Shown here one piece after another: positions 35,613-64,000 of a DNA stretch of 64,000 nucleotides. The translations under genes and the position numbers were made by a program. Each line of letters opens with the position of its first letter. Positions within the stretch are counted from its first letter, which is position 1. The stretch is from positions 2,793,234 through 2,857,233 of the forward strand of contig OY969099.1 in assembly GCA_963697875.1 (NCBI GenBank), in the 5' to 3' direction. The DNA is from an uncultured Actinomycetes bacterium. GTDB lineage: Bacteria; Actinomycetota; UBA4738; HRBIN12. The notes beneath the pieces are model-generated. The model ran no database searches and was not told the origin of the DNA. It saw only the letters and a list, made by a program, of their open reading frames with translations.

Positions 35613-35643
35613 GGAGCAACGCTATGCCCTGTTCCACGAGGCG

Positions 35644-43239: not shown

Positions 43240-43520
43240 AGCGTCCGGCGACGCCGGATGCGCTCGGGCGATCAGGACACCGGACTCCGGGGGCTCGGAC
43301 GGCAAGCTCTCAGGCCGTCGGTCGATAGGTCGCGAGGATGACTCCGCCATAGCCGGGTCGTCGCCCTTGGCCCACCCACCATGGGCAAAGCCTCCGCGCG
43401 TGTCTTCGTTGGCACGCGCCGGGCTTTGCATGACCCCATCGAGGCTGACGTGGTTGAGGACAACGAGTTCCACGATCGATGGTGCCAGAGCGTTCCTTCT
43501 CGCGCCAAGCGCCACTCAGG

Positions 43521-44060: not shown

Positions 44061-44074
44061 AGGTCAAACGCAGT

Positions 44075-44113
44075 GAGCGCTGAGGGGCTCGAACCCCCGA
44101 CCCTCTGCGTGAG
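44075..44113 (-). tRNA. tRNA 3'-end remnant (T-arm plus 3' acceptor strand), probably an att-site scar; no intact tRNA
   Basis: The reverse complement reads ...CACGCAGAGGGTC GGGGG TTCGAGC CCCCT CAGCGCT C A. GGTTCGAGCCCC is a canonical T-stem-loop followed by a 7-nt acceptor strand. The 5' half cannot be folded into a cloverleaf. Confidence 0.4.
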
Positions 44114-44141: not shown

Positions 44142-45086
44142 TCATTCGCCGCGAAACCAGGTGACCGTGCGGCGGATCCCCTCGCGGATCGGGACGCGGG
44201 GCTCGTAGCCGAGGAGCTCCCCGGCGAGCGAGATGTCGGCCTCCGAGCGCAGGATGTCGCCCTCGCGGGGCGGCGTGAACCTCGGATCCGGGGAGGCCCC
44301 GCACTCGCCCGCGATCAGCTCGAGCAGCGCCTTCACCGAGGTCGGTGTGGCGCCCCCGCCGACGTTGAAGGCCCGTCCGAACGCTTGCTCGTCCGCGCGG
44401 ATCGCGAGCAGGTTCGCGTCGACGACGTCGTCGACGTACGTGAAGTCGCGCGACTGCGACCCGTCGCCGTGGATCACCGGCCGTTCGCTCGTCAGACAGG
44501 CCACGATGAACCGCGGGACCACGGCGGCATACTCGCTCGCCGGGTCCTGCCCCGGCCCGTAGACGTTGAAGTAGCGCAGCGAGATCGTCGGGACGCGGTA
44601 GGCGGTCCACGCGGTCATCGCGTACAGCTCGGCCGACGCCTTGGCCGCCGCGTACGGCGAGCGCGGCAACACCGGCATCGTCTCCCGCAGCGGGAACTCG
44701 TCCTGATCGCCGTAGACCGAGGAGGACGACGCCTCTACCACGACGGCGCCCGCGTCGCGCGCCGCGAGCATCACGTTGAGGCTTCCGCGCAGGTTCACGT
44801 CGGTGACGAGGCCCGGTTCGCGGATCGAGAAGGGGACCGAGCGTATCGCAGCCTGGTGCAGGATCGCGTCGCAGCCGCGCGCGGCGTCGGCGACCGCCGC
44901 CTCGTCGCGCACGTCCGCTTCGACGAACCGGACCTCCGGCACGTCCCGGAGCGCCTCGAGTGATCCGGCGGACAGGTCGTCGAGGCCCACCACCTGCACG
45001 CCGTCGGCGACCAGACGGCGGCACAGGTGGGCGCCGACGAACCCGGCCGCCCCCGTCACCAGCATCCGTCGCACGTCTCGATCCAT
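44142..45086 (-). CDS. NAD-dependent sugar epimerase/dehydratase (UDP-glucose 4-epimerase family)
   Basis: MLVTGAAGFVGAHLCRRL is a Rossmann GxxGxxG. SSSSVYGD is present. YAAAKAS is the catalytic YxxxK. The start is Met 91 of track ORF 44142..45356. Confidence 0.85.
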   Translation of the reverse strand: MDRDVRRMLVTGAAGFVGAHLCRRLVADGVQVVGLDDLSAGSLEALRDVPEVRFVEADVRDEAAVADAARGCDAILHQAAIRSVPFSIREPGLVTDVNLRGSLNVMLAARDAGAVVVEASSSSVYGDQDEFPLRETMPVLPRSPYAAAKASAELYAMTAWTAYRVPTISLRYFNVYGPGQDPASEYAAVVPRFIVACLTSERPVIHGDGSQSRDFTYVDDVVDANLLAIRADEQAFGRAFNVGGGATPTSVKALLELIAGECGASPDPRFTPPREGDILRSEADISLAGELLGYEPRVPIREGIRRTVTWFRGE

Positions 45087-45217
45087 CAGCCGTTGCACCG
45101 TAGCCGCCGCGAACCGGAAGCGTAGAGAGAACACCGCATGCGGCGTATGCCCTCCGACGCCCCCCTCCGTACGATCGGAGGCACCAGGATCCGCATCCGG
45201 GACCAGGAGGTCTTCGC

Positions 45218-45745
45218 GTGCCGACCGAGACCGAGACCGAGACCGAGCATCGAGGCATCGATCGTCGTCAACTCCTGAAGCGGGCTGCCGCCGCGGGCGT
45301 CGTCGTATGGACCGTGCCTGCCGTCCAGACGCTGAACATGCCGGCGGCGCTCGCACAGGTCGGCTCGCCGGGCGAGACCTGTTACACGATCAAGATCCTC
45401 TCGAACTCCAGCTGCAGCTCCCCGAACGCGAACGAGAACGTGGCGTCCACGCTGAAGTGCCTCTACGCCTTCGACCCGGACCTGATCCTCCGCAACACGG
45501 GGATCGGGTGCCAGTTCGCGAAGCTCGTGTCGACCGACGTCGACGAGCTCGGGACCTGGCAGGTCAACCTCGAGCCCGGCTGTCGTCTCATTGCCGGGTT
45601 CGCGCGCTCGGGCACCGGTCAGGGTACGTGCATCCAGGCGTCCGATGCCGGCGGCGACCCGGTCGGAGAGGGCGCGACCGGTTCGATCTTCTTCCGCGGG
45701 CAGCCCGTGAACCATGTCGAGATAACGTTCTGCTGCAAGCCGTGA
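45218..45745 (+). CDS. Tat-signal secreted Cys-containing protein (paralog A)
   Basis: GGAGG lies 7 nt before GTG 45218. The N-terminus is MPTETETETEHRGIDRRQLLKRAAAAGVVVWTVPAVQTLNMPAALAQ, with a twin-arginine RRQLLK, an h-region and AxA. The mature region begins VGSPGETCY... and has about seven Cys. It is homologous to the 46950..47435 product. Confidence 0.6.
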   Translation: MPTETETETEHRGIDRRQLLKRAAAAGVVVWTVPAVQTLNMPAALAQVGSPGETCYTIKILSNSSCSSPNANENVASTLKCLYAFDPDLILRNTGIGCQFAKLVSTDVDELGTWQVNLEPGCRLIAGFARSGTGQGTCIQASDAGGDPVGEGATGSIFFRGQPVNHVEITFCCKP

Positions 45746-45752
45746 GCGCAGG

Positions 45753-46004
45753 TCACCACACGAGCCCTCGCTCGACGTCGTCCAGCATCACGATCGCGGC
45801 CCGGTAGCGCCTCAGCAGGTCGTCGCGGTCCTGGTCGCCGATCGCCCTGAGCTCGTCCTCGGAGCATTCGGACACGATGTCTGCGGCGACGACGAGCTCG
45901 TCCCGGACCCGCCCTGCGATCGCGCGCGCCTGCACCGCAGCGGTCACGGCGCGCGCCACGGTCCTAGGCCCGCGTTCGGTTGCGTTGCCGATCGCAGCGT
46001 TCAC
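45753..46004 (-). CDS. small protein (83 aa), translationally coupled downstream of the HprK-like kinase (possible PqqD/RRE-like partner; unverified)
   Basis: ATG 46004 overlaps the kinase stop (ATGA). GC3 is high. No motif is recognised. Confidence 0.4.
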   Translation of the reverse strand: MNAAIGNATERGPRTVARAVTAAVQARAIAGRVRDELVVAADIVSECSEDELRAIGDQDRDDLLRRYRAAIVMLDDVERGLVW

Positions 46005-46873
46005 GTCGATCCGCCTCCCATCAGGTCCTCGATCAGCCGGACGGCGGCATCGAGGTTACCCACCGTCAGCCGATAGCACGCCGCGCCGCGCAGCACGCCC
46101 GCGAGGCGCTCCACGCCGCGGCCGCCGACGACCTCCAGGTTGAACGTTTGCTCCAGCAGGAGCGACAGCATCTCCGCCCGCGACACCGCGCGGAGCTCCG
46201 TGGGGGACCCCTCCTCGAACCGCGGCGCGATGATGTACCGAAGCTCGCACGGCTCGCCCAGGCACCCTGGGCGAAGCGCGCCCGGTGGGATCAGGAAGTC
46301 GAGGTTCCGCACGCGCTCGGCCCACCCGGGCAAGGACGCCCGGAGATCGGGGAACAATGCCATCGAGTCGGGCGCGAGGAGCAGCGGCCGGGTGAACGGA
46401 TACACGAGACCGTCTTGGAGCCCGATCAGCGCGGACTCGTCCGACAGGAATTCGAACCCCGTGCGGACGAGTCCTATCGTGGTCGTCGTCTTGCCGTGAT
46501 CCGGCGGCGCCGGCAGCGCAACCCCCACGCCACCCTTGCTCACGACGCCGGCGTGCACCGCGACGTGAGTAGCCACGCGCATCAATGAGGCGCGAGCGAC
46601 GTCCGCGATGACCCAGGTGAGCATCGTGCCGGGCGGGTTGCCTCGTTGCACCGACCTCCCGTTCATGAGGAGTTCGGGCTGGCCGTTCTGACCGGTGCCC
46701 AGCACTTCGTAGGTGGTGCGATGGGCAGGCGTCACGCGGGGATCGACCCAATCCGCGAACAGCGACGCCGCGGCCTCCGCTACATCGCGCGAGTCGGTGG
46801 TGACGACGAAACGGAATCCAGCCACGTGGAACGACATCGTCGACGCGACGGAACCTGGCGCCGACACGCTCAC
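46001..46873 (-). CDS. HprK-related serine kinase (HPr kinase/phosphorylase C-terminal-domain-like P-loop protein)
   Basis: THVAVHAGVVSKGGVGVALPAPPDHGKTTTTIGLVRTGFEFLSDE is an HprK-type P-loop (GxxGxGKS/T-like PDHGKTTTT) with downstream conserved blocks. The N-terminal HPr-binding domain is absent. Confidence 0.65.
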   Translation of the reverse strand: MSVSAPGSVASTMSFHVAGFRFVVTTDSRDVAEAAASLFADWVDPRVTPAHRTTYEVLGTGQNGQPELLMNGRSVQRGNPPGTMLTWVIADVARASLMRVATHVAVHAGVVSKGGVGVALPAPPDHGKTTTTIGLVRTGFEFLSDESALIGLQDGLVYPFTRPLLLAPDSMALFPDLRASLPGWAERVRNLDFLIPPGALRPGCLGEPCELRYIIAPRFEEGSPTELRAVSRAEMLSLLLEQTFNLEVVGGRGVERLAGVLRGAACYRLTVGNLDAAVRLIEDLMGGGST

Positions 46874-46949
46874 GACGAGCCTCCTCCGGCGCGCCGATGC
46901 CTGGTCCGGTCCGGACCGGGCATCGCGGAGAACGGCCGCGCGACCGCCC

Positions 46950-47435
46950 CTACGGGCAGTTCGCGCGCGGCGGCGAGGTGTTTACCGGCCGACCGGGCCT
47001 TCCGATCGTCACCTGGCAGTTCTCGGTACCCGAGCAGTAGAGGAAGTTCGTGAAGGGCCCCCGCTGGTAGGCGGGGAGCGCCGGATTGTGGCCTGCCCCG
47101 TTGGAGGAGTTGTACCCGCTCTGCCACTTGCACCAGTTCTCGCAGTCGTCCGCCGTGTTCTGACCGGGGTCGACGAAGGCGTCGGGTTGGCCGTAGTTCT
47201 TGACGATGTTCCCGCTGCCATCCGGCGTGTAGCAGTAGCAGGCGGAGCACTCGCCCGGGCTCGGGCCGTAGGCCGCGGCCGCTTTCATCCCGACGGTCTG
47301 GATCGTCGGGGCCGCCCAGAGCAGAGCTCCGCCCACGATCGCGGAGCGCCGCAGCAGGTCGCGTCGCGACATCCCGATCTCGGACTCCACGTCGATCGAA
47401 CGCTTCTTGGGCTCGAGCTCGTCGTCCACGGTCAC
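46950..47435 (-). CDS. Tat-signal secreted Cys-rich protein (paralog B)
   Basis: ...MSRRDLLRRSAIVGGALLWAAPTIQTVGMKAAAAYGPSPGECSACYCY... is a twin-arginine motif with signal region and an N-terminus homologous to paralog A. The mature part has about nine Cys. The start is GTG 47435 or ATG 47372. Confidence 0.6.
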   Translation of the reverse strand: MTVDDELEPKKRSIDVESEIGMSRRDLLRRSAIVGGALLWAAPTIQTVGMKAAAAYGPSPGECSACYCYTPDGSGNIVKNYGQPDAFVDPGQNTADDCENWCKWQSGYNSSNGAGHNPALPAYQRGPFTNFLYCSGTENCQVTIGRPGRPVNTSPPRANCP

Positions 47436-47549
47436 TCCACCTCGATCCGGGTCGATGGGGACACGCTAGCGACGGCCGGACGGCCGCAGATGCGCCGTCG
47501 ACCGTATCTTTCGCCCACACGGCGTACGTAGGCGGTCTGCGTACCCGGG

Positions 47550-48716
47550 TCACGGCCGCGCCGCCTCGATCGCCCGCCCCACACGGTCGACGTCTTCGAC
47601 CGCCATGCCGTTCCACAACGGCAACGTGAGGGCCTGCCGCGCGGCCCGTTCGGTCTCGGGCAGGTCCGCGACGTGACCGTTCAGGTGCGCGTACGCCTTC
47701 ATCCGGTGCACCGGCGGGTGGTAGTAGCGGCGCGTCTCGATCCCCCAGGCGGCGAGCGCCGCCGCCAGCGCGTCGGCGTCGATCCCGAAGCGGTCCGGGT
47801 CGATCAAGACGGTGAGGTCCTTATAGGTGCTTCGATCGCCGTCGGGCACGACCGGGAACCGGATCCCGCCGATCCCGCCGAGGCGCTCGCGGTACCGGCC
47901 GGCGATCGCGTTGCGCTCGTCCAGCCGCTCGTCCAGGTCCTCGAACGAGGCGAGGGCCACCGCGGCGTGGAGCTCGGAGAGACGCGCGTTCAGCCCCACG
48001 AACAGGCAGTCGTAGTCGCCGGGGTTGCCGTAGTCCCGGGCGATGCGCAGGCGCTCGGCGAGCAGGTCGTCGTCGGTCGAGACCAACCCGCCCTCGGCGG
48101 CCACGAGCACCTTCGTCGGGGACATGCTGAAGACCTCGGCGTCGCCGAGCCCGCCGACCCGGACGCCGCCGGACGAGGACCCGAACGCGTGGGCGGCGTC
48201 GAAGAACAGGCGCAGGCCGTTCACGCCGGCGAGCGCCCGGAGCGCGTCGACGTCGCACGGCGTGCCGTAGACGTGCGTCGCGAGGATCGCCGCGGTGCGG
48301 GCACCGAGGACGCGGTCGACGGCCTCCGGGCTGAGGGTGAGCGTGTCGGGGTCGACGTCGGCGAACACGGGCCGCAGGCCGTTCCACGCCACCGCGTGGG
48401 CCGTGGCCGCGAACGTGAACGACGGCACGATCACGTCGCCGTCGAGCTCGGCGCACCGGAGCACGAGCATCAACCCGGCCGTGCAGGACGAGACCGCGAC
48501 CACGTGCCGGACCCCCAGGTACGCCGCGGCGGCCGCCTCGAGCCGCCGGACCGTGGGGCCGTTCGTCAGGACCCCGCTCCGCAGGATCGTCTCGACCTCG
48601 GCCGCGACGCGCGCGGGGTCGGCGAGGCGGGGGCGCGCGAGCGGCAGCGGTGTGGCCGGACCGAGCGCCGGGATGGACCGACGCGCCTGGGTGGCGTCGA
48701 GCGGGTGGGTACTCAT
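47550..48716 (-). CDS. DegT/DnrJ/EryC1/StrS-family sugar aminotransferase (PLP-dependent)
   Basis: The start is MSTHPLD (ATG 48716). ...GVLTNGPTVRRLEAAAAAYLGVRHVVAVSSCTAGL...VIVPSFTFAATAHAV...FSMSPTKVL carries the PLP-Lys motif. Confidence 0.85.
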   Translation of the reverse strand: MSTHPLDATQARRSIPALGPATPLPLARPRLADPARVAAEVETILRSGVLTNGPTVRRLEAAAAAYLGVRHVVAVSSCTAGLMLVLRCAELDGDVIVPSFTFAATAHAVAWNGLRPVFADVDPDTLTLSPEAVDRVLGARTAAILATHVYGTPCDVDALRALAGVNGLRLFFDAAHAFGSSSGGVRVGGLGDAEVFSMSPTKVLVAAEGGLVSTDDDLLAERLRIARDYGNPGDYDCLFVGLNARLSELHAAVALASFEDLDERLDERNAIAGRYRERLGGIGGIRFPVVPDGDRSTYKDLTVLIDPDRFGIDADALAAALAAWGIETRRYYHPPVHRMKAYAHLNGHVADLPETERAARQALTLPLWNGMAVEDVDRVGRAIEAARP

Positions 48717-49675
48717 CGGGGCTCCTCTCGTGGACGCGGGATCGGGCGGGCGGCCGTCAGCAGCCAACCGGTGCACGCGACGCCCGCGCCGGCCGCCGCG
48801 GCGAGGGCCGACGCCGGCTGGAGCCGGGCGACCGCCTGCGCACCGAGCGCGAGGAGCGCGCCGCAGGCCCAGCAGGCGAGCGTCGAGGCTGTCCGGCTCC
48901 CGAGCGCCTCGGCCAGCCGGTCGTACGCGTGCTCGCGGTCGCCGAGGACGGCCGGAGCCGACGACCACCGCCGCCGGACCACCGTGGACGCCAGCTCGAC
49001 GAGGAAGAAGCCGAGGCACACCGCCGCCGCGAACAGGCCCGGCCAGTCGGTCGCCGCGGTGGCCGAGGCGACCACCAGGAGCACGCCGAGTGCGTAGGCG
49101 CCTCCGTCTCCGAGGAACGCGCGCGCCGGAGGGCGGTTCCACGCCAAGAACCCGAGCGCCGCGCCGGCGGTTGCTGTGGCCACCGCCGTCGACATTCCGG
49201 CCGCGGCCGCGACCCCGGCGAGGCCGGCCGCAGCGAACGCTCCCAGCCCGGTCGCCAACCCGTCCTGACCGTCGACCATGTTCACCGCGTTGCAGGCGGC
49301 GACGGTCGCGATCACGACCGCGACGCCACCGAGCGGGCCGAGCGGCGCGAACGTGAGGCCGCCGGCCGCGAGGCACACCCCCGCGAGCACCTGCGCGGCG
49401 AGCCGGATCCACGGCGAGATCGGACGGATGTCGTCCACCAAGCCGGCGGCGAGCGCCACGACCACGGCGACCACGAACCACATCCGGCGCTCGCCGCCGA
49501 GCCACGGCCACGCGCCGGCCAGCGCGCCGGCCGCGACCGCCGCCCCGGCGAGCGCCACGGGCCTCGCGTGCAGCTTCAGCGCGCCCGGCCGATCCACCAG
49601 ACCGAGCCGCGGCCCGACGCGGACGAGCACCGCCGTCCCGACCAGCGAGACGGCGAGCGCGATCACGAACGGCAC
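48713..49675 (-). CDS. polyprenyl-phosphate N-acetylhexosamine-1-phosphate transferase (WecA/TagO/MraY GT4-PNPT family); initiating transferase
   Basis: Ten TM helices are present. DDIRPISPWIRL is a motif of the family. NAVNMVDGQDGLA is the NxxNxxDGxDGL active site. The stop overlaps the aminotransferase start. Confidence 0.85.
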   Translation of the reverse strand: MPFVIALAVSLVGTAVLVRVGPRLGLVDRPGALKLHARPVALAGAAVAAGALAGAWPWLGGERRMWFVVAVVVALAAGLVDDIRPISPWIRLAAQVLAGVCLAAGGLTFAPLGPLGGVAVVIATVAACNAVNMVDGQDGLATGLGAFAAAGLAGVAAAAGMSTAVATATAGAALGFLAWNRPPARAFLGDGGAYALGVLLVVASATAATDWPGLFAAAVCLGFFLVELASTVVRRRWSSAPAVLGDREHAYDRLAEALGSRTASTLACWACGALLALGAQAVARLQPASALAAAAGAGVACTGWLLTAARPIPRPREEPR

Positions 49676-51423
49676 GACGCCACCCAGACGGTGCTCTCGA
49701 CGCCGTCGTGCACGGCGATCGTGCCGACCCGCTCGAACCCGAGCGCGGCGTAGAAGGCGTTCGCCCCGTCGTTGTCGGCGCCGACGACCGCCTTGCAGCG
49801 ATCGGCCCCGCGACGCGCCAGGCCTGACAGGACCGCCCCCGCGAGGGCGCGGCCGGCCCCGGTCCCCCGGGCCCGCTCGTCGACCGCGATCGCCAGCAGC
49901 TCCGCGTCGGGAAGGTCGGCGCGCCGGCCGGGGTAGCGGGCGGTCTCGCCGGCGCGTGCGCGGACCGACGCATCCCGAAGGCGCGGCGCGGCCGCGAGGG
50001 CCGCCCGGACGCCCCGCCGGAACGCGAACCGACGGTAGAAGGCGCCGAGCGATGGCACGCCGGACGCGAACCCCAGCACCTCACCCCCCCGCTCGGCGAC
50101 GAACACCGTGGCGGCGCGATCGCCGATCAGCCCGGCGTGCAGCTGCGTGAGGAACCGCGCCCCGAGCCAGGGCAGGAACGCCGTGGGCATCGTCGCGATG
50201 TGCAGCCGCGCGATCGCCCGGGCGTCCGATCGCCGCGCCGGCCGTACGACCGTCGCGTCCCGGTTCCCCCGGACGATCCCCCTGGCTCGCAGCAGGCGCT
50301 CGGTGACGCCGACAACCGTGGCGACCACCCGCTCCTGGTCGAACTCGGCCTCGGCCCGGCGCCTCGCGGCCGCGCCCATCCTCCGTCGCAGTGCGCCGTC
50401 CTCCAGGACCCGGACGAGCGCCGAGGCCAGCGCGCCCGCGTCGCGGACCGGCACGAGCAGCCCCTGCACGCCGTCGGTCACGACCTCCCGGCAGCCGCGG
50501 ATGTCGGTGAGCACGAGCGGAAGCCCGCTCGCCGCGGCCTCGATCGCCGAGCGCGGCATCCCCTCGCGCCACGACGGCAGCGCGAACACGTCCATCACGG
50601 CCATCAGCTCGGCCACGTCCTCGCGCCACCCCGTGAACACCACGTCCTTGCTCGCCGCCTCGATCTCGGCGGCCTCGATCGCGTCGGGCTTATCCGGGTC
50701 ACCCTGCCCGACCACGAGGAACCGCGCCGCGGGCACCCGCGCCCGGACCCGACGCGCCGCCTCGAACAGCTCGAGGAAGCCCTTCTCGCGAACCATCCTC
50801 CCGACGGTCCCGACGACCAGCTCGTCCTCGCCGATCCCGAGCTCGGCGCGGAGCTTCCGCGCCGCCTCCGAGCCGGCGCGCTCGGGCGCGAACCGCGCCA
50901 CGTCGATCCCGTTGCCCAGCTGGATCGCCCTGCCGCGGCGGACGACCCGCAGGCGTCGCGCCCACGCGAGGTCCTCTCCCGACTGGTACAGCTCGAGGTC
51001 CGAGCAGCGGGATGCGAGCGCCTCCACCGCCAGGACCGGCCCGCGCTTCCCGAGCCGGTCCTCCGGCGTCGCCCAGAGCCCGTGGACCGTGTTCAGCACG
51101 ACCGGCACGCCGAGCAGGCGGGCGGCCACGCGCCCCATCGCGCCGGGCTTCGGGTTGTGCGTGTGGACGGCGTTGAACCGCTCGCGCCGGAGGATCCGGA
51201 CCAGCTCGCGGAGGGCCCGCACGTCCGCCCGCGGGTTCCACGCCCGCGTCACGGTCGTCCACGCCACGTACCGGATCCCCTCGGCCTCGACGTCGCCGAC
51301 CCACGGGCCCGGCGCGCCGATCGCCGTCACGTCGTGCCCCTTCTCGCGGAGCCCCACGAGCTGCGGCAGCAGCAGGAACCGGTGCGTCAGGTCGACCGTG
51401 GCCACGTGTGCGATCTTCGCCAT
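49663..51423 (-). CDS. bifunctional glycosyltransferase family 4 with a C-terminal GNAT N-acetyltransferase domain
   Basis: The start is MAKIAHVATVD (ATG 51423). The GT4 domain is ...GRMVREKGFLELFEAA...FALPSWREGMPRSAIEAAASGLPLVLTDIRGCREVV.... The reading frame then continues uninterrupted into the GNAT fold ...VFVAERGGEVLGFASGV...LLAIAVDERARGTGAGRALAGAV...GANAFYAALGFERVG. Confidence 0.75.
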   Translation of the reverse strand: MAKIAHVATVDLTHRFLLLPQLVGLREKGHDVTAIGAPGPWVGDVEAEGIRYVAWTTVTRAWNPRADVRALRELVRILRRERFNAVHTHNPKPGAMGRVAARLLGVPVVLNTVHGLWATPEDRLGKRGPVLAVEALASRCSDLELYQSGEDLAWARRLRVVRRGRAIQLGNGIDVARFAPERAGSEAARKLRAELGIGEDELVVGTVGRMVREKGFLELFEAARRVRARVPAARFLVVGQGDPDKPDAIEAAEIEAASKDVVFTGWREDVAELMAVMDVFALPSWREGMPRSAIEAAASGLPLVLTDIRGCREVVTDGVQGLLVPVRDAGALASALVRVLEDGALRRRMGAAARRRAEAEFDQERVVATVVGVTERLLRARGIVRGNRDATVVRPARRSDARAIARLHIATMPTAFLPWLGARFLTQLHAGLIGDRAATVFVAERGGEVLGFASGVPSLGAFYRRFAFRRGVRAALAAAPRLRDASVRARAGETARYPGRRADLPDAELLAIAVDERARGTGAGRALAGAVLSGLARRGADRCKAVVGADNDGANAFYAALGFERVGTIAVHDGVESTVWVASCRS

Positions 51424-54569: not shown

Positions 54570-54570
54570 C

Positions 54571-57793: not shown

Positions 57794-58937
57794 ATTGCGC
57801 GTGCTCTAGGTGTTCGCTATGCCGCGCGATAGCTTCATCGACCAACGCCTCGAATCGGCGCGTGACGGTCCCGGGGTCCAGCTCGTCGCGTCGGCTGTGC
57901 TCCATCGCGCGTGCCGAAAGTTCTTCATACCTCGACTCGTCATCCCAGACCTCTGCAAGGGCGCGGATCCACCCGTCGAGCGGCGCGCCCGGGTCGACCA
58001 GGACCCCTCCGCCGCCGACCGATTCCGGCAGCCCCCCCAAAGCGCTCGTGATGCTCGGGATCCCGTTGACTTGCGCCTCCGAGACGACCCGACACCAGGC
58101 TTCCTCATCCATGCTCGGGACCAAGACCAACCGGCAGTCCCCGTACAGCTCCCCGGGATCGCTCGTCGCCGGGCGAACCTCCATGTTGCCGAGAGCGCGT
58201 GCCCGCTCGCGCACGTCACGGAGCGCGCCTCGCCTCATCCGCCAGCTCAGCCGGATCACGAACGGGATGTCGCGCCGCGCCGACGCGATACCGAAGGCGA
58301 TCTCGATCCCCTTCCGCGGGGTCGGGTTCACGAACAACACCTTCTCGCGTCGAGTTTGAACCTCGTACGTGGACCTGGGGAAGAGAGATGGGAGGAACGT
58401 CGCCTCACGCCCAGCGAGATGGACACATCGCGCTGTGAAGGAAGAGTTCGCGATCACGACATCGGCGTGGATCGTCGATCCGGCCGCTTCGGCAGATCTA
58501 GCGTCCCTCACGTAAAGGATGCTGGGGCGATCGGTCGTCGCGTTGAGGCAGGCTCGCGCGAATCGAGGATCTCCACAGGTCACGACCACGACGTCGGCCG
58601 CAGTCTCGCTGGCAACGGCCCCGACCGCCGCAACCGGGTCGTGCACACGCCTCGTCGGGTATCCGAGCGACAGGTCGAGGCGAGGAGCAAGACGGCGGCC
58701 GAGGCCGTCAGCCGCCCAGGCCAGCGAACCAGCAAGCGATCTCCTTGGGAGGCGTGTCAAGACGGACACCTCGTCCCCTGCTGCTTGGAGACAAGCCGCG
58801 AGATGGTGGGTACTGACCTCCGACCCGCCCACGTAGGGCAGATGGTTCTTGCCGACGAACAGCACGCGACGCGCAGGTAGCTCAGCGCGCCGACGCGTCT
58901 CGACGTCTGAGATCGCGGAACGACGGGCCGTCATCAT
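57786..58937 (-). CDS. glycosyltransferase family 4
   Basis: VLFVGKNHLPYVGGSEV... and ...LVPSMDEEAWCRVVSEAQVNGIPSITSALGGLPESV... are GT4 patterns. The local GC is lower than in the core. Confidence 0.75.
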   Translation of the reverse strand: MMTARRSAISDVETRRRAELPARRVLFVGKNHLPYVGGSEVSTHHLAACLQAAGDEVSVLTRLPRRSLAGSLAWAADGLGRRLAPRLDLSLGYPTRRVHDPVAAVGAVASETAADVVVVTCGDPRFARACLNATTDRPSILYVRDARSAEAAGSTIHADVVIANSSFTARCVHLAGREATFLPSLFPRSTYEVQTRREKVLFVNPTPRKGIEIAFGIASARRDIPFVIRLSWRMRRGALRDVRERARALGNMEVRPATSDPGELYGDCRLVLVPSMDEEAWCRVVSEAQVNGIPSITSALGGLPESVGGGGVLVDPGAPLDGWIRALAEVWDDESRYEELSARAMEHSRRDELDPGTVTRRFEALVDEAIARHSEHLEHAQYE

Positions 58938-60067
58938 CGCCCCACCTCAGAGGTCGGCCTCTGCGAGAGCGCGTCGACCGCATCCTGCCAGATAACCGAC
59001 CACCTCAGATCTGCCACCGCATCCCGATTGGCGATACCCGCGTCAACGGCACGCGACCTGTCAGCCAGGTATCCGGTGACTGCTTGGGCGAACGGCTCCG
59101 GGTCGTCGCACACGCGGAGGCCCGTCGATCCGGCGATGCCGGCGGCCGCCCACGATGTGGCGACGACAGGACGTGAGGACGCCATCCCCTCGACCACCTT
59201 GATCTTCGTGCCCCCGCCGCCGAACAAAGGAGCCACGACGACCGTTGCTGCCTCGTACTCGGGCACGAGAGAACGAACGAACCCGGAGTACGACACAGAG
59301 TTGTCGCCTCGTCCGTTCCACCCTGGACCGACGACGCGGAGCCGAGCGCCGGGAACGCGCTCCCGAACCGTCGGCCAGACCATGTTCACGAACCAGTCCA
59401 GACCGGACCGGTTCGCCGCGTAGTTCCCGGGACCGACGAAGAGACAGACGGATGCGCCGTTGGACGGCGGGCTGACCGACCACAACTCGTCGGTGGCACC
59501 GTTCGGGATCGTCCGCGCGGTGAGGTTCGGTAGGGACCTGGTGAGCCGCAAGCGCTCTTCCTCCGATACGAACCAGGCCTCGTCACATCGACGGAGGACG
59601 CGCTGCTGCCAACGCGCGTACTTCATGGCCGACAGCCGTGTCGAAACCCGAGCGATCCACGGGGTGCTCAAAGCTGCAAGCGACCCCAACCGTGCGGCGT
59701 CGTCGTCGTGGAGGACCACGATCCGTCGCGAAGTGTCGAGCCTCAGCGCTGCCGGCCAGACCGCGGTGGTCTCCGCCTGGACGACGTCGTACGTTCCCCG
59801 AAGGTCTCCGCGGGCTCGATCGACGTTCCATGCGAGCGGGGGGTCCGCGGATAGGTGGCAGCGCACCGGATGCGGTCGAACCTCGATGTCGACATAGCCA
59901 TCTAGCAGCGATGCCTCTTCCTGGGTCAGGGGGTGCTCGTGCCTCCGTCGGAAGTGGTACACGTCGACCTCGAAACCGGCACCCTTGTAGTAGCGGAGCA
60001 TGGCGGTCACGCGCGTTGCGAACCCCGTCCCCCGAAGCGACCGGGCGACGACAATCGCGACCCTCAC
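58934..60067 (-). CDS. glycosyltransferase family 4
   Basis: ...VVAPLFGGGGTKIKVVEGMASSRPVVATSWAAAGI... is a GT4 C-terminal domain. Confidence 0.7.
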   Translation of the reverse strand: MRVAIVVARSLRGTGFATRVTAMLRYYKGAGFEVDVYHFRRRHEHPLTQEEASLLDGYVDIEVRPHPVRCHLSADPPLAWNVDRARGDLRGTYDVVQAETTAVWPAALRLDTSRRIVVLHDDDAARLGSLAALSTPWIARVSTRLSAMKYARWQQRVLRRCDEAWFVSEEERLRLTRSLPNLTARTIPNGATDELWSVSPPSNGASVCLFVGPGNYAANRSGLDWFVNMVWPTVRERVPGARLRVVGPGWNGRGDNSVSYSGFVRSLVPEYEAATVVVAPLFGGGGTKIKVVEGMASSRPVVATSWAAAGIAGSTGLRVCDDPEPFAQAVTGYLADRSRAVDAGIANRDAVADLRWSVIWQDAVDALSQRPTSEVGR

Positions 60068-61047
60068 GTTGTGACCAACGCTCTCGTCAGGTGCTTCTTC
60101 GCCCGGCTAGCCCGTACGTGGATACCCCGCATGGCCACCCTCGTTGCTCCCCGTACACGGGTAGTTGCAGGAAGCGTCGGAAGACCGCGCTCGTACCCAA
60201 GCTCCGTCAGCAGCGACCCGGCGACCGACTCGAACACCTCCAGGTCGCTTCTGGTCATCTGCTCGCGCCAGTCCCTGGTCGAACGTTGCGGAGGCAACAA
60301 CGCGTTCATGTGGAAGCGCTCGAGGTCACTGGGAACCTCCAGCCGGTCGCGCGCGGTTCGGTGGTACTCAAGCATCGACGGAACGAACTCCAGCCCGAGG
60401 AAGGCGCATACATCGCGCAGCTTCCCCGGCGGGTCATCGACCAGATCCTCGTAACGAAGCTCGAGGTAGCGACTGGACCCGAGTGCCGCTCCCGCACGTA
60501 ATCCTGCGCTCACCCACTCGCGCCACCTCCACGATGCTTCCCAGATCCCTCCCTTGAAGGAGCGCATCTCCAGGTAGGAGAGCGCAACGTTGCGCCCATC
60601 CCTGATCAGGTGGACGAATCGCGCCCTCGGGAAGAGCACGGCCAAGTGACGCATCGACAACACATAGATCGGCGTCTTGTCTCCCCACCGTGGCTTGCCG
60701 TGAAGCGTCGCGTACGCTCTGAACGGCGCTGCGACCACGTCCGCGAACCCGACGTCGGGGCGCGACGGGGCTGCCTCCCGAATTGCCTCAGCCGGCACGC
60801 CCCAGGTCGCGAGGTTCGGGTCCGAAACGACGTCTTCCAGAAGCCGGTCCGGATGGAAGAACCCCTCCGACCAGTACCGGCGGCGCCCATCCCAGAGACT
60901 GCGGATGAAGTTGGACTCCCCAGGGATGGCGAGCTCGGGATGCGAGTCGAGCATCAGGCGAAGGAGGGTCGTGCCAGATCTCCCGCACCCGACCACGAAT
61001 ACTGGATCGTTCTCGACCGGGGGCCGCCCTTCCGTCAACACGCCCAC
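60064..61047 (-). CDS. sulfotransferase-family protein (PAPS-dependent; Stf0-like carbohydrate sulfotransferase)
   Basis: VFVVGCGRSGTTLL is the 5'-PSB P-loop motif. ...HLIRDGRNVALS... is 3'-PB-like (RDxR). Confidence 0.7.
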   Translation of the reverse strand: MGVLTEGRPPVENDPVFVVGCGRSGTTLLRLMLDSHPELAIPGESNFIRSLWDGRRRYWSEGFFHPDRLLEDVVSDPNLATWGVPAEAIREAAPSRPDVGFADVVAAPFRAYATLHGKPRWGDKTPIYVLSMRHLAVLFPRARFVHLIRDGRNVALSYLEMRSFKGGIWEASWRWREWVSAGLRAGAALGSSRYLELRYEDLVDDPPGKLRDVCAFLGLEFVPSMLEYHRTARDRLEVPSDLERFHMNALLPPQRSTRDWREQMTRSDLEVFESVAGSLLTELGYERGLPTLPATTRVRGATRVAMRGIHVRASRAKKHLTRALVTT

Positions 61048-62168
61048 CCCACATCGCTCGGTGCCGACGCCTCGAGCAGTCGCTCGTAGAACCTAAGCAG
61101 CTGCGGCATGACAACTCCGATGTCGAACGCGCGCATCGCCTCTCGACCTGCTGTGCCCAGTGAGCGACGGAGGTCAACGTCATCGACGAGCGCACGAAGA
61201 TGCACCGCCGCGACATCGGGTCGATGGACCGGGAAAGTGAGTGCCCCCGGCACTCGCCCAGTTAGTTCTCGCAACCCAGGAATATCGGCAGACACGACCG
61301 GCAGTGCTAGAGCCATGCCCTCCATGGCGACGCGACACCAACTCTCCTGAAGCGACGGGATGAGCAGGACGTCCATCTCTCGATAGGCCGTTTCGACGTC
61401 GTCGACGACACCGCGCCACTCGATTCGATCACGGAGGCCGGCCGCGACAAGTCGATCAATGCATGAACGGACGTATGCAGAGGACGAGTCTGGTTTCACG
61501 CCGAAGATGACCCATTCGACATTGTCGTCTGCCATCTGCCGCGCCACATCGACCACAATGTGGAGTCCCTTTCGCCTCGAACCTGAACCGACAAAGCCAA
61601 TCCGCATCGGTAGATCATTCCGGGGGAGGACTGAATGCGACGGGACTTCGATGGGGTTCGGCAGGATCTCTTCAGTCATGGGACCAAGGCCGGCATCGAC
61701 AAGAACCGCTTTCGCTCGCGTTGAGACGGGGTGGAGTTCCAAGCGAACGCCGAGTTGCATCCAGAGCTTCGCTAGAACTCGAGCGCGATAGCCAATCTCA
61801 GAGCCGTGGAAGTGAACGAGGACAGGAATCGACCTCCTCAACGCGATTGGTGCGATGAGGTTCAGTGCGGACAGTCCGTTCGCATGGATCACGTCGGGGA
61901 CGCAGCCACGAGCAATGTAGCCTGACAGCGCACGACTCCCTTTGAGCCAAGATCTCACTCGCGACCTCTGCAGAGGCAGTTGAAGCGACCCGACTTGAGG
62001 CAGCTCTTCAACCGATGTAAGGATGACGCCGCCTGCTGCAGCGACGTCAAGTTCGCACACATTCGCTACCTGGGAAGCAAAAGCCGCCATCGTTCGGTCG
62101 GGCCCGCGTAATCCTCCAAGCGGGTGGACCATCAGAACACGCACGGTCAGTCGGAACCCGCAACCCAC
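61035..62168 (-). CDS. glycosyltransferase family 4
   Basis: ...VLVHFHGSEIG... and ...LLIPSLQESWCRVAMEGMALALPVVSADIPGLRELT... are GT4 patterns. GC is markedly lower here. Confidence 0.75.
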   Translation of the reverse strand: MGCGFRLTVRVLMVHPLGGLRGPDRTMAAFASQVANVCELDVAAAGGVILTSVEELPQVGSLQLPLQRSRVRSWLKGSRALSGYIARGCVPDVIHANGLSALNLIAPIALRRSIPVLVHFHGSEIGYRARVLAKLWMQLGVRLELHPVSTRAKAVLVDAGLGPMTEEILPNPIEVPSHSVLPRNDLPMRIGFVGSGSRRKGLHIVVDVARQMADDNVEWVIFGVKPDSSSAYVRSCIDRLVAAGLRDRIEWRGVVDDVETAYREMDVLLIPSLQESWCRVAMEGMALALPVVSADIPGLRELTGRVPGALTFPVHRPDVAAVHLRALVDDVDLRRSLGTAGREAMRAFDIGVVMPQLLRFYERLLEASAPSDVGWAC

Positions 62169-62422
62169 GATGTTGGTGTCTTCTCGTTTGAACGTAGGTC
62201 CGTCCAGGCTCCTTCGAACACGACGGGTCCCAGTTCGGCTCCAATCGCATCCAGGTGGGCAGCCTCGAAAGCGACGGAGCGATCCAATTTCCCGGGGTCG
62301 ACGATCGCGCCCTCGACCGACAATGCGCAGATCACGGGGAAGTACGCACCCGGCCGCAGAGAGAGATTCTCAATCCGCCAACGCACCATTCGAGCATGCA
62401 TTCGGCTTTCGATCGGCTTCAT
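62147..62422 (-). CDS. small hypothetical ORF (91 aa) coupled to the upstream hydrolase gene
   Basis: The start overlaps the hydrolase stop. No motif is recognised. Confidence 0.25.
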   Translation of the reverse strand: MKPIESRMHARMVRWRIENLSLRPGAYFPVICALSVEGAIVDPGKLDRSVAFEAAHLDAIGAELGPVVFEGAWTDLRSNEKTPTSWVAGSD

Positions 62423-63363
62423 GCGCCATCCCAGTTCAGTCGACCGACCCAGTCGCGTACCAGTTCCAAGACCGTGTCCTGGGACTCCATCGTTCCGAAA
62501 CCGTGGATAGATCCACCGACGCGCCTGAGCTCCACTCTGGCTGAAGGAAGCGAGAGAGAGGACTCGAACAGAGGCTGAGCGCGCAGGTAGTCATCAAACA
62601 GATCGTCCTGCTCCCCATACACAATCAGCGTCGGCACGCCGCGCTCCGCGAGCCACTTGAGGGACCCCAGGAACGAATTGCTGACAGGGCCTACACCGTG
62701 AGCTACGGACTCCTGTTTCGAGTGTTGGAGCCGGTCCATCTTCGAGGCAAAGATCTTCCTGTAGGTGGTTCGACGATTGGGTGACAGGAATCCTCGGATT
62801 ACGCGAGGTTTCGCCGCTCGCCACAGAAGCTGGTTCACCGGTAGCTCCGCCATCCTGGTCGAAACGCGCTGGCCCATCTCGAAGTCGCGAACGGGCGGGC
62901 ACAGAAGGACAAGTCCAGCCAGGTGTTCCACCGCTGGAGCTGCTGACAGAGCTGTCCGCGCTCCGAAGCAGCTGCCGATGAGGAGCACCTCGTCCAGGCC
63001 AAGCGTCTCAAGGTGATGTATGGCCCCGAGCAGATCTTTGGTGAACGGCTCTGCGAGGTCGAATCGGTCAAGTTCACCGGTACTCTCCCCGACGCCGTGG
63101 TAATCGAACCGGAAGGCCGCCAGGCCTCTTTCCGCCGATCCCCTGCTAAGCCGAACCCATATGTCGTTGACACTCGTCGATAGCGGAGTGCCGCCGCTTG
63201 ACAAGCTGACGACCACGCCTCGGGGAACGGGTCGATCACCTTTCCCTTCGGAGAGAAGACCAAAGAGCCTCTCCTGACCGGCTTCGAAGTACATCGGGGT
63301 TTCCCGAACGGAGAGCATCCCTATTCCTTGTGAGAGAGGCGTCGGAGGCCGCCCAAGATCCAA
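62419..63363 (-). CDS. alpha/beta-hydrolase fold protein
   Basis: FDYHGVGESTG is an HG-x-G-x-S oxyanion region. LLIGSCFGARTALSAA is the nucleophile elbow. Confidence 0.65.
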   Translation of the reverse strand: MDLGRPPTPLSQGIGMLSVRETPMYFEAGQERLFGLLSEGKGDRPVPRGVVVSLSSGGTPLSTSVNDIWVRLSRGSAERGLAAFRFDYHGVGESTGELDRFDLAEPFTKDLLGAIHHLETLGLDEVLLIGSCFGARTALSAAPAVEHLAGLVLLCPPVRDFEMGQRVSTRMAELPVNQLLWRAAKPRVIRGFLSPNRRTTYRKIFASKMDRLQHSKQESVAHGVGPVSNSFLGSLKWLAERGVPTLIVYGEQDDLFDDYLRAQPLFESSLSLPSARVELRRVGGSIHGFGTMESQDTVLELVRDWVGRLNWDGA

Positions 63364-64000
63364 TCAGCCGTCGCCTTCACGCATCCCGCCGTCAAACGAG
63401 TGTGGGCGTCTCGCTCCTCCTGTATGCCGCGCGACCACCACGAAACCTCTTCACCCAAGACGTCGAACTCGACCTGGAACCCCTTCTCGCCCCAAACCTC
63501 GGCGGCGGAGGCATAGTCCGGTCGGGCCTTGCCGCGGCCGAACTGCACGATCTTCAATGGCCGCGGTGTGTCGCCGAGGACCTCCGGCAGGGAGTGATCG
63601 AGACTCTGGAGGAGGACCCGCCGAACGGGGTATCCATGCACGTCGACGAGACCGCGCCTGTCTAGCTCGGTAGCCGCGTCGGACCCACTCGACCGGTCAC
63701 GCGTGTCGCCAGCGAGACTTGCGAACCGCAGAGCTCGCTTCGCCTCCAGCAAGTAGCTCTCTGACGTCATGACGGGCGACCACAGCACCAAGGGGGCTCG
63801 AGGATGCTCGGAGGCGACGGCGGCAGCCACGTAACCGCCAAGACGGCTTCCGACGAAGCACAGCTGCTTCGCGTTGAACCGCTCCCGCATCAGTTGGATG
63901 ACTGTGCAAGCGTCGTGGGTCATCGTGGCAAACGTCATCTGCTGGGGATCCCCCCAGCTATGTCCTATACCCCGGTAATGGAGGCGTGCGGTCGCGACAC
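63321..64000 (-). CDS. alpha/beta-hydrolase fold protein, paralog of the previous; partial, as the N-terminus lies beyond the window
   Basis: The frame is open to the window edge: ...LHYRGIGHSWGDPQQMTFATM...LCFVGSRLGGYVAAAVA... shows the same block order as the neighbouring hydrolase. Track ORF 63321..63938 begins at an internal Met. Confidence 0.6.
   Translation of the reverse strand, partial: VATARLHYRGIGHSWGDPQQMTFATMTHDACTVIQLMRERFNAKQLCFVGSRLGGYVAAAVASEHPRAPLVLWSPVMTSESYLLEAKRALRFASLAGDTRDRSSGSDAATELDRRGLVDVHGYPVRRVLLQSLDHSLPEVLGDTPRPLKIVQFGRGKARPDYASAAEVWGEKGFQVEFDVLGEEVSWWSRGIQEERDAHTRLTAGCVKATADWILGGLRRLSHKE

Follow-up and report, generated by a model that had tools for sequence, protein, structure and literature searches.

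Which product is made by the glycan-related genes at the end of this stretch of actinobacterial DNA, and do these genes act as one unit? The stretch, called the window below, is 64,000 nucleotides long, comes from an uncultured actinobacterium (contig OY969099.1) and has a G+C content of about 70%. The glycan region occupies positions 44142-64000 and comprises roughly 20 genes. The surface glycopolymers of uncultured soil Actinomycetota are, to our knowledge, almost unknown. The original prediction, made from the letters of the DNA alone, proposed one very long operon for an aminated, N-acetylated or de-N-acetylated, sulfated heteroglycan built on polyprenyl-phosphate. The domain content of the region and its recurrent gene order fit such a product, with sulfation as a possibility. 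On the basis of family content, gene overlaps and synteny we consider it likely that the locus directs the lipid-carrier-based assembly of a cell-surface heteroglycan, either a wall polymer or an exopolysaccharide (EPS), by means of a core that is conserved and a tailoring module that is peculiar to this strain. The gene families, the synteny and the fold of a central membrane protein are observed, and from them we infer the steps of the pathway. The system is of an ordinary kind; it offers an annotation lead and does not answer a long-standing question.

Every glycan-related open reading frame (ORF) of the region lies on the minus strand, and transcription proceeds from beyond position 64000 down to 44142. 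The end with the hydrolase and sulfotransferase genes is therefore upstream, or promoter-proximal, an epimerase gene is the last gene and a tRNA remnant lies at the downstream end. The prediction had the cluster begin at this remnant and end in the sulfotransferase and hydrolases, which reverses its direction. The near-complete translational coupling that it described holds in part. All eleven junctions that it named are true overlaps, of 1-26 nt, and the 14 genes from the glycosyltransferase gene GT4_a to the DegT aminotransferase gene follow one another without a break, joined by overlaps or by a single 1-nt gap. However, there are gaps of 286 nt between the hydrolase gene abh2 and GT4_a, of 120 nt between DegT and tatA and of 76 nt between tatA and a kinase-like gene. 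In addition tatB, on the plus strand, parts the epimerase gene from the other genes, with a divergent region of 131-152 nt between epimerase and tatB, so the cluster is not strictly unidirectional.

The G+C content at third codon positions (GC3) is 0.63-0.79 from abh1 to GT4_c, 0.83 in GT4_d and 0.91-0.96 from GT4_e to DegT. This step, between 57786-64000 and 47550-56690, falls inside the uninterrupted run of overlapping genes. The four non-overlapping junctions, the opposite-strand gene and the sharp GC3 step argue for several transcription units, at least three, of mosaic origin, and a single operon is unlikely. The Logan contig L085 matches window positions 44562-57429 at 100% identity, and independent gene calls on it give equal lengths for all complete genes from GT4_e to tatB. 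Pfam recovers every family that the prediction named, although the inventory left out four genes at 45100-47550 and missed the identity of the membrane protein described next.

The GT-C-fold membrane protein and the conserved core

The protein at the centre of the cluster (53196-54569; minus strand, as for all further cluster genes except tatB) was listed in the prediction as a further polytopic protein. It consists of 457 amino acids with about 12 transmembrane helices and has no match in Pfam, NCBIfam or the PDB sequences. No significant match to the described GT-C families (PMT, PMT_2, DUF2142, GT87, Glyco_transf_22 and others) was found for it, and 34/35 members of its family are without a Pfam match at E <= 10, the remaining member matching DUF2142 at 1.4e-5. 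When its predicted structure is compared with known structures, all top 20 matches are GT-C enzymes. ArnT is among the top matches, ALG12 and Pmt score equal to it in the fold comparison, and PIG-M, ALG9, STT3B, AftB, ALG3, PglB, ALG6, AftA, PimE, AftD and DPY19 come after these. The model superposes on the conserved GT-C transmembrane core.

GT-C enzymes bear a catalytic acid in their first large outside loop. In this family an aspartate, D103, is invariant in 35/35 sequences and lies within the loop 98-148. Lysine and arginine number 20 per 88 residues in the inside loops and 9 per 123 in the outside loops, the D103 loop being among the latter, and this positive-inside charge bias places D103 in the first large outside loop. 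Its predicted structure thus marks the protein as a glycosyltransferase of the GT-C fold. Three other identities were considered for it, those of a Wzx flippase, a Wzy polymerase and an exosortase, and were rejected in view of the uniform list of structural matches. The family comprises 5,688 representative clusters (50% identity) at E <= 1e-3, of which 1,197 are found at E <= 1e-30. The central membrane enzyme belongs to a large GT-C family that has no Pfam or NCBIfam model, and its culturable Kitasatospora carriers make genetic testing possible.

With the GT-C protein as anchor, 82 independent loci were fetched and the neighbours within 10 kb of the GT-C gene were counted. The loci are almost all from metagenome-assembled genomes (MAGs) of Actinomycetota, at no more than 52% identity, and include Acidimicrobiia and one Solirubrobacteraceae MAG. 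Cultured Kitasatospora, Yinghuangia and Streptodolium are among them, at about 40-43% identity.

The most constant neighbour of the GT-C gene encodes a stand-alone GNAT protein (54571-55587, 338 amino acids) with an N-terminal Acetyltransf_9 domain (Pfam, 42 bits) and no NCBIfam match. It is present in 67/82 loci, always directly upstream of the GT-C gene. Next to it lies GT4_e (55584-56690, 368 amino acids; Pfam Glycos_transf_1, 120 bits), a near-universal core gene whose product has stp2 (TIGR03088, 2.3e-40, below cut-off) as its best NCBIfam match. With few exceptions the related loci, those of Kitasatospora included, have GT4_e beside the GNAT and GT-C genes. The Pfam-assigned GT4 glycosyltransferase GT4_d (56687-57793, 368 amino acids) is kept upstream of GT4_e in many loci.

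Downstream of the GT-C gene, and overlapping it by 26 nt, is the gene for a Wzy_C membrane protein of polymerase or ligase type (52166-53221, 351 amino acids, about 10 transmembrane helices; Pfam Wzy_C 42.6 bits against a cut-off of 31.7), which has counterparts in 14/82 loci. The Wzy_C family is common to WaaL, Wzy and PglL, and the domain cannot separate a polymerase from a ligase or an O-oligosaccharyltransferase. It is followed by a polysaccharide deacetylase of the NodB/CE4 type (51423-52169, 248 amino acids; Polysacc_deac_1, 77.9 bits), which has no obvious signal peptide, matches PgaB, NodB, HfsH and others weakly in NCBIfam and recurs in 31/82 loci. The GT4-GNAT fusion (49663-51423, 586 amino acids) combines Glyco_trans_1_4 (126 bits) with a C-terminal GNAT domain (Acetyltransf_1, 45 bits). 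Its best NCBIfam match is again stp2 (1.4e-46, below cut-off), and full-length fusions occur in 15/82 loci.

The candidate initiating enzyme (48713-49675, 320 amino acids) is a member of the MraY/WecA family of polyprenyl-phosphate N-acetylhexosamine-1-phosphate transferases (PNPT). Its score against PF00953, 93.9 bits with a cut-off of 27, places it in this superfamily; against the WecA equivalog TIGR02380 it reaches 60.7 bits with a cut-off of 326, and MraY models score about equal. A PNPT gene is found in 16/82 loci, and in L004 a Bac_transf enzyme stands in for it. The DegT/DnrJ/EryC1-type sugar aminotransferase (47550-48716, 388 amino acids; Pfam 331 bits) is closest to DesI, PseC and ArnB types. 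Its best NCBIfam match is a DesI-type 4-aminotransferase (4.3e-96, below cut-off), it matches ArnB at 3e-62, and it is present in 60/82 loci.

The last gene of the cluster encodes an NAD-dependent epimerase of the short-chain dehydrogenase/reductase (SDR) superfamily (44142-45065, about 307 amino acids; Pfam Epimerase 208 bits), which is GalE/WbpP/TviC-like and has counterparts in 21/82 loci. It matches TviC (1.9e-57) and GalE (2.3e-44), both below cut-off, and the C-terminal domain of ArnA weakly. Read by eye, its motif SSSSVYG is epimerase-like, as opposed to the TDEVYG of dehydratases, and the possibility of a 4,6-dehydratase was rejected on this SSSxVYG motif.

The gene order of the core recurs. 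GT4_d-GT4_e-GNAT-GT-C-Wzy_C-deacetylase-GT4/GNAT-PNPT-DegT-tatA-kinase is kept in L001, L003, L008 and L010. L020 has the same core order minus the tatA and kinase genes, and L036 has it without Wzy_C and with an epimerase between PNPT and DegT. In L055 the order is GT4_d-GNAT-GT-C-Wzy_C-deacetylase-fusion-PNPT-DegT-kinase; here GT4_e has moved upstream and tatA is missing from its usual place. A minimal core, GT4-GNAT-GT-C-DegT, is found in Kitasatospora, Yinghuangia and Streptodolium. The compact version in Kitasatospora sp. NBC_00085 (L064; NZ_CP108229.1, 7458511-7479749) was scanned for domains. It consists of two GT4 genes, a gene for a 717-amino-acid protein with a C-terminal ParA/MinD-like P-loop domain, possibly BY-kinase-like, and then GT4-GNAT-GT-C-DegT, with an ABC-2 permease gene about 8-9 kb upstream and no initiating transferase. 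About 25 other Kitasatospora and Yinghuangia loci show GT4-GNAT-GT-C-DegT and ABC-2 matches by tblastn, and no Wzy_C, deacetylase or PNPT match by the same search.

The variable module and the Tat-protein module

The upstream part of the locus differs from the core. The GC3 of the core genes is higher than that of abh1 to GT4_c, and the latter are almost without counterparts in the 82 loci, the sulfotransferase aside. Glycan loci commonly show this pattern, in which a conserved core is combined with a tailoring module that is horizontally exchanged and differs from strain to strain.

The hydrolase gene abh1 (63321-64000) leaves the window, its start lying at about 64226, so that the cluster runs on past position 64000 as had been predicted. 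The complete product, of 301 amino acids, is encoded (as P0157) on L086, a 2.1-kb Logan contig that agrees with the window at every position where the two overlap and lengthens it by about 755 nt, to about 64755. It is an alpha/beta hydrolase (Pfam Hydrolase_4) with hydr2_PEP (TIGR03101; 6e-15, 55.4 bits against a cut-off of 203) as its best NCBIfam match. Upstream of abh1, L086:1-533 (about window 64223-64755) encodes the C-terminus of an AMP-binding ligase and an 84-amino-acid acyl carrier protein (ACP), joined by 4-nt overlaps. The best NCBIfam match of the ligase fragment is a generic long-chain-fatty-acid-CoA ligase family and the second-best is ligase_PEP_1. The second alpha/beta hydrolase gene, abh2 (62419-63318, 299 amino acids; Pfam Abhydrolase_1, 52 bits), is separated from abh1 by 2 nt, and its product matches hydr1_PEP (TIGR03100) best, over its full length (5.9e-19, 68.4 bits against a cut-off of 168). 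Exact look-ups of the abh2 and GNAT proteins gave no match. The two hydrolases are part of a ligase-ACP-hydrolase acyl cassette that extends past the window.

GT4_a (61035-62132; Pfam Glyco_trans_1_4, 73.5 bits) has the lowest GC3 of the cluster, 0.63, and an uncertain start at 62132, 62144 or 62168. It overlaps by 13 nt with the gene for a sulfotransferase (60064-61047, 327 amino acids), whose scores against Sulfotransfer_3 (134 bits) and Sulfotransfer_1 (42 bits) identify the fold of sulfotransferases dependent on 3'-phosphoadenosine 5'-phosphosulfate (PAPS). The best NCBIfam match is the Nod-factor sulfotransferase NoeE (2e-12, below cut-off). A sugar is the likely but unproven acceptor of this enzyme, and sulfation of the glycan is plausible but unproven. 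GT4_b (58934-60067, 377 amino acids; GTGA overlap) is assigned by Pfam and has stp1 (TIGR03087; 7.7e-28, 97.8 bits against a cut-off of 317) as its sole NCBIfam match. GT4_c (57786-58937, 383 amino acids; Pfam Glycos_transf_1, 38.3 bits; ATGA overlap) has no counterpart at >=50% coverage among the 82 loci.

Sulfotransferase homologues are found in the variable part of at least 9 of the 82 loci (7/82 by the neighbour count, plus two by Pfam in L001 and L003). Hydrolases are present in 2-3/82 loci, the pair recurring in L058, L068 and L083, and ligase with ACP in 1/82. The same kinds of tailoring genes thus appear to have been recruited to the core repeatedly. The variable module looks horizontally acquired, and the GC3 step suggests that it was acquired recently and fused in-phase to an old core.

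The prediction counted seven GT4 genes. Six lie in the region, and the seventh (35644-36789, minus strand) lies outside it. Directly downstream of this gene is a sulfatase gene (34182-35621, minus strand; Pfam Sulfatase 114 bits; arylsulfatase/choline-sulfatase-like). These two genes are about 8.5 kb from the cluster and may bear on the turnover of a sulfated glycan.

The four genes at 45100-47550 encode two proteins with signals for twin-arginine translocation (Tat), a kinase-like protein and a small ORF product. The gene with the working name tatA (46950-47429), called independently on L085, encodes 159 amino acids with a Tat-like leader and eight conserved cysteines, and the protein ends in Cys-X. 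Its GC3 is 0.91, and that of the scan frame 46950-47465 is 0.89. None of its 36 homologues has a Pfam domain. The leader, DELEP..IDxESExGMSRRDLLRRSAIVGGALLWxAPxIQ, is better conserved than the mature part and scores 14.7 against TAT_signal_seq, just under the cut-off of 16.7. The predicted structure has no recognisable fold. Homologues of tatA are found in 6/82 loci, and at the same position in L001, L003, L008, L010 and L019. A longer ORF at 46870-47616 was rejected as a gene, since the overlapping frame 46950-47429 is conserved and independently called; it is in the wrong frame, its translation is arginine-rich and without a family match, and its GC3 fails a filter at 0.80.

The second gene of this kind, tatB (working name; 45218-45745, plus strand; L085 call), encodes a cysteine-containing protein of 175 amino acids with a Tat signal (TIGR01409 TAT_signal_seq, 17.4 against a cut-off of 16.7) and a leader paralogous to that of tatA. 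The Tat-signal score aside, neither protein has a family or fold match. The convergent layout of tatA and tatB is also present in L001, at 43% identity. Between them is the gene for an HprK-related kinase-like P-loop protein (46001-46873, 290 amino acids; TIGR04352 HprK_rel_A, 1.5e-33, 116 bits against a cut-off of 200) with the Walker A motif GKTTT, which has counterparts in 11/82 loci; we found no relevant literature on HprK-related kinases. An 83-amino-acid ORF (45753-46004; L085 call; GC3 0.88) has a 4-nt overlap with the kinase stop codon, with no family match and no homologue in the 82 fetched loci. The Tat-protein/kinase module accompanies the closest relatives of the locus. Matches to the leader only are found near kinase homologues in L018, L025, L033 and L084.

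The proposed pathway and its alternatives

In the pathway that we propose, the SDR epimerase, the DegT aminotransferase and the GNAT domains would make a nucleoside diphosphate-linked amino or acetamido sugar. At the inner membrane face the MraY/WecA-family transferase would load the carrier, undecaprenyl or decaprenyl phosphate, with a HexNAc-1-phosphate-type sugar, and the six GT4 enzymes would extend the lipid-linked glycan. The signal-less, presumably cytoplasmic CE4 deacetylase may free an amine, as may be compared with HfsH and ArnD. In this strain the PAPS-type sulfotransferase would sulfate the glycan or an intermediate, and the AMP-ligase/ACP/two-hydrolase cassette would acylate it. 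The glycan would then cross the membrane by way of an exporter encoded outside the window. On the outer side the Wzy_C protein would polymerise or ligate it, and the GT-C enzyme would add a sugar from a polyprenyl-phosphate-sugar donor. This donor is probably a housekeeping one, since the cluster has no GT2 synthase or GtrA flippase of its own. Extracytoplasmic decoration of Gram-positive wall polymers by GT-C enzymes has been set out as a general principle (Tezuka & Ohnishi 2026, PMC13390465).

The exporter is the main gap in this model. As the prediction had stated, the domain and membrane-span scans of the window reveal no Wzx or ABC exporter; they show no Wzx (MOP-family), Wzz/PCP, ABC-2 permease, GtrA-type or other candidate exporter, and the only proteins outside the cluster with at least four predicted spans are an AI-2E transporter, a hemolysin-III protein and a major facilitator superfamily (MFS) protein. 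In the related loci a homologous ABC-2 permease is encoded 2.5-9.7 kb upstream of the GT-C gene in 34-36/82 cases (34/82 in the neighbour count), including L053, L058 and L068, which also hold sulfotransferase or hydrolase genes. Polysacc_synt is found only in the L011/L012 pair, of which L011 was scanned and L012 was grouped with it by BLAST. The exporter of this strain is most likely encoded upstream of about 64755, pushed there by the variable module.

Several observations weigh against the proposed heteroglycan pathway. Neither an exporter or flippase nor a chain-length regulator or LCP-type ligase is present in the window, and most relatives of the Wzy_C type likewise have no gene for ABC-2 or Wzx within 10 kb. 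The cluster encodes no synthase that would supply the GT-C enzyme with a polyprenyl-phosphate sugar, nor a 4,6-dehydratase to feed the DesI/PseC-like 4-aminotransferase, and a CapD/PglF-type dehydratase is found in only 7 related loci. Foldseek gives weak values for the GT-C fold, with a best E of 0.1 and a TM of 0.40, the high-probability matches being the same GT-C enzymes. The nearest PDB relatives of the sulfotransferase are the OLS/CurM polyketide synthase sulfotransferase domains and tyrosylprotein sulfotransferases, whose substrates are polyketide intermediates or tyrosine. All NCBIfam matches are below the curated equivalog cut-offs, so the function assignments are at the level of family homology. 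As to operon structure, the consensus scans are uninformative: they yield 0 promoters, and 4 terminator-like sites where 6.3 would be expected.

The same data can be read as a mosaic, in which the core, the acquired GT4/sulfotransferase/acyl cassette and the Tat/kinase module are merely adjacent and have no single product. The GC3 step, the gap of 286 nt between abh2 and GT4_a, the gaps of 120 and 76 nt around tatA, the near lack of counterparts for abh1, abh2, GT4_a, GT4_b and GT4_c, and the fact that the nearest structural relatives of the sulfotransferase are not carbohydrate enzymes all speak for such a view. However, the 14 genes from GT4_a to DegT are joined across the compositional boundary, and this unbroken joining makes co-translation of acquired and core genes likely; the recurrence of sulfotransferases in at least 9 related loci and of the hydrolase pair in L058, L068 and L083 also argues against mere adjacency, and we regard the mosaic as rather unlikely. 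A narrower role for the core alone, in which DegT, GNAT, deacetylase and GT-C work in the manner of the Arn pathway, an amino sugar being made, protected by N-acylation, loaded onto polyprenyl phosphate, deprotected, flipped and passed by the GT-C enzyme as a single cationic residue to an existing wall polymer or lipid, with the GT4 enzymes making the acceptor or serving a separate pathway, is unlikely in our judgement. DegT aminotransferase, N-acyl protection, CE4 deacylase and GT-C enzyme are features of both systems, ArnD belongs to the same CE4 family as the cluster deacetylase, and ArnT is among the top structural matches. The DegT protein matches ArnB at 3e-62 and the SDR protein matches the C-terminal domain of ArnA weakly, and GNAT (67/82) and DegT (60/82) are the most constant neighbours of the GT-C gene. 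Yet the window and most relatives lack both an ArnC-like GT2 polyprenyl-phosphate glycosyltransferase and a small flippase of the ArnE/F or GtrA type. In their place the cluster has a PNPT and six GT4 enzymes, and a lipid-loading PNPT makes a pyrophosphate-linked and not a monophosphate-linked sugar. The Kitasatospora-type minimal loci are without a deacetylase, the equal scores of ALG12 and Pmt show that the fold match is not Arn-specific, and a lipid A acceptor is impossible in a monoderm.

Protein O-glycosylation, with the Wzy_C protein as a PglL-type O-oligosaccharyltransferase or the GT-C protein as an enzyme like PMT or an oligosaccharyltransferase, and with tatA and tatB products as acceptors, seems to us very doubtful. 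The Wzy_C family is shared with PglL. The PNPT (or Bac_transf) enzyme, DegT, acetyltransferases and GT4 enzymes recall the pgl-type bacillosamine pathways, PglH and PglJ being among the NCBIfam matches, and a phosphoglycosyl transferase, DegT, acetyltransferase, GT4 enzymes and a Wzy_C protein link the cluster with the systems of Neisseria (PglL) and Campylobacter (Pgl). In addition tatA follows DegT directly in at least 5 syntenic loci, 6/6 loci with a tatA homologue also carry Wzy_C, and there are no Wzz, Wzx or LCP polymer genes in the window. On the other hand, the GT-C protein has only 457 amino acids and lacks a soluble domain in the periplasm, be it WWDYG-type or MIR, and the Wzy_C protein has only 351. 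The tatA and tatB genes are missing from most core loci (tatA 6/82), including all those of Kitasatospora, and the co-occurrence of tatA with Wzy_C is limited to the closest relatives and is therefore not independent evidence. Tat substrates are exported folded, and the tatA model is without a recognisable fold, so that no glycosylation motif can be argued from it. With six GT4 enzymes and the tailoring steps, a polymer or repeat unit is a better fit than a short glycan on a protein. Compared with the pgl systems, the window lacks a PglF-type dehydratase and a flippase, the cluster has far more glycosyltransferase and tailoring genes, and the acceptor is putative.

A copy of a locus that is already known, namely the mycobacterial linker/arabinogalactan locus, a teichuronic acid locus or an exosortase A (XrtA) EPS locus, was tested and rejected, and we give it next to no chance. 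The prediction had named a match to the mycobacterial rhamnosyl-GlcNAc linker locus as a finding that would speak against it; the Pfam and NCBIfam scans contain no GT2, rml or glf family, all transferases being GT4, and the gene order is another. Multi-component extracytoplasmic glycosylation combines a GT-A synthase, a GtrA flippase and a GT-C enzyme, and mycobacterial arabinogalactan and lipoarabinomannan are built with WecA, cytoplasmic glycosyltransferases, an ABC-2 exporter and the GT-C enzymes Aft and Emb. There are echoes of arabinogalactan assembly in the WecA-family enzyme, the cytoplasmic glycosyltransferases, the ABC-2 exporter of the relatives and the outside GT-C enzyme. TuaC is among the GT4 matches, and the best NCBIfam matches of many genes are XrtA-locus families. 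However, the scores are far below the cut-offs (stp2 139/409, hydr1_PEP 68/168, WecA 61/326), and the cluster is without a rhamnosyltransferase, rml genes, GlfT or another galactofuranosyl transferase, a GT2 synthase, GtrA, an exosortase, Wza/PCP and a UDP-glucose dehydrogenase. The GT-C protein has no sequence similarity to solved GT-C structures or Pfam GT-C families, and the gene order fits none of these loci.

The variable cassette bears most resemblance to that of the XrtA/PEP-CTERM EPS loci of Proteobacteria. The best or only curated matches are stp1 for GT4_b, stp2 for GT4_e and the fusion, hydr1_PEP for abh2, hydr2_PEP for abh1 and HprK_rel_A for the kinase, all of them families that were defined on such loci; the stp2 score is 138.8 bits against a cut-off of 409. 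Group-1 glycosyltransferases and a CE4 deacetylase are present in both, and the set of ligase, ACP, hydrolase 2 and hydrolase 1 is reproduced here as a compact cassette. In contrast to those loci the cluster has no exosortase, PEP-CTERM protein, outer-membrane exporter or Bac_transf initiator, its host is a monoderm, and the GT-C protein is outside the XrtA-locus families that any gene here matches. No cluster gene matches an exosortase family, and none is left unaccounted for. PEP-CTERM/exosortase systems have been reported to be absent from actinomycetes (Haft et al. 2006, PMC1569441). We read the XrtA-type matches as signs of a shared EPS-tailoring chemistry, the ligase-ACP-two-hydrolase acyl cassette, and not of membership. 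An exosortase-type cassette of this composition in a monoderm would separate the function of the cassette from protein sorting and point to glycan acylation.

Closer to the host are the wps clusters of Actinoplanes missouriensis, of which wps-1 contains sulfotransferases and wps-3 a deacetylase, DegT, acyltransferases, GT4 and an O-antigen-ligase-like Wzy (Tezuka & Ohnishi 2026, PMC13390465). They resemble the present locus as actinomycete EPS clusters with either sulfotransferases (wps-1) or a deacetylase/DegT/GT4/Wzy set (wps-3). As compared by description, they differ from it in gene order and in glycosyltransferase families (GT2/GT26 in wps-1), and they have Wzx and Wzz and no GT-C enzyme, whereas the window has a GT-C enzyme and neither Wzx nor Wzz. 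According to the same paper, bacterial sulfated polysaccharides are known essentially from cyanobacteria, and it contains the first proposal of one for an actinomycete. The sulfotransferases in at least 9 related loci suggest that sulfation of surface glycans may be commoner in this phylum.

Beyond the heteroglycan pathway, which we continue to prefer, a bolder idea is that GT4-GNAT-GT-C-DegT represents an undescribed actinomycetotal pathway of extracytoplasmic glycosylation, centred on a GT-C family for which no model exists. In the sub-type of the window, where Wzy_C, a PNPT and a deacetylase are added, it would be tied in function to Tat-exported eight-cysteine proteins, with their unusually conserved leader, and an HprK-like kinase, the proteins being glycosylated and/or phosphorylated and built into a sulfated, acylated surface matrix. 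We hold this to be improbable. If it were true, the locus would be the monoderm equivalent of those systems of Gram-negative bacteria that pair an exosortase-associated EPS with dedicated secreted proteins.

The tRNA-Lys remnant and neighbouring genes

The tRNA remnant that the prediction placed at the border of the cluster is present, at its downstream end and not at its start. It occupies 44073-44110 on the minus strand, 30 nt beyond the epimerase stop codon, and comprises the variable loop, T-arm and 3' acceptor strand. Of its last 35 nt, 32 are identical to an intact tRNA-Lys(UUU) on a metagenome contig (L088:1763-1838), which was retrieved in a metagenome search with a 22-mer of the remnant; a 29-mer had no match. 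The 22-mer is unique in the window, where 0.01 matches are expected by chance, and T-arm-like motifs number 2 in the window against 0.26 expected. ARAGORN and Rfam call no tRNA at the remnant, and there is none in the window. RNA folding of the region gives z = -0.08, with no sign of a structured terminator. As judged from its match to the intact gene, the remnant is a real 3' end of a tRNA-Lys gene.

A partial tRNA 3' end at the border is a mark of genomic islands, and here it suggests that site-specific integration brought in all or part of the region. If the remnant is an integration scar, its orientation implies that the inserted DNA would lie at higher coordinates, that is, in the glycan cluster, and that an intact tRNA and an integrase would lie beyond about 64755. 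When up to 3 mismatches are allowed, the repeat still has no further copy in the window; an intact tRNA is absent there as well, and no integrase is present among the genes scanned. A similar orphan tRNA-Lys 3' fragment, at which no tRNA is called, is found at L087:1062-1088 (JGI contig Ga0182024_10009728), with no cluster genes beside it in 1.4 kb of that contig. Immediately beyond the remnant, at 43516-44067 on the minus strand, is a gene for a hydrophobic protein of 183 amino acids without a family match; with this gene the chromosome outside the putative island would begin.

Other features lie further from the cluster. An ORF for a BNR/Asp-box protein (31993-32901, minus strand), which matches the glycosylhydrolase family F510_1955 weakly, and the beginning of an MFS transporter ORF (32537-34156, plus strand) overlap, and the boundaries of the two are tentative. 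A large signalling protein that contains, in this order, a zinc ribbon, an adenylate/guanylate cyclase domain, an AAA_16 ATPase domain and TPR repeats is encoded at 28779-31631 on the plus strand and is unrelated to the cluster.

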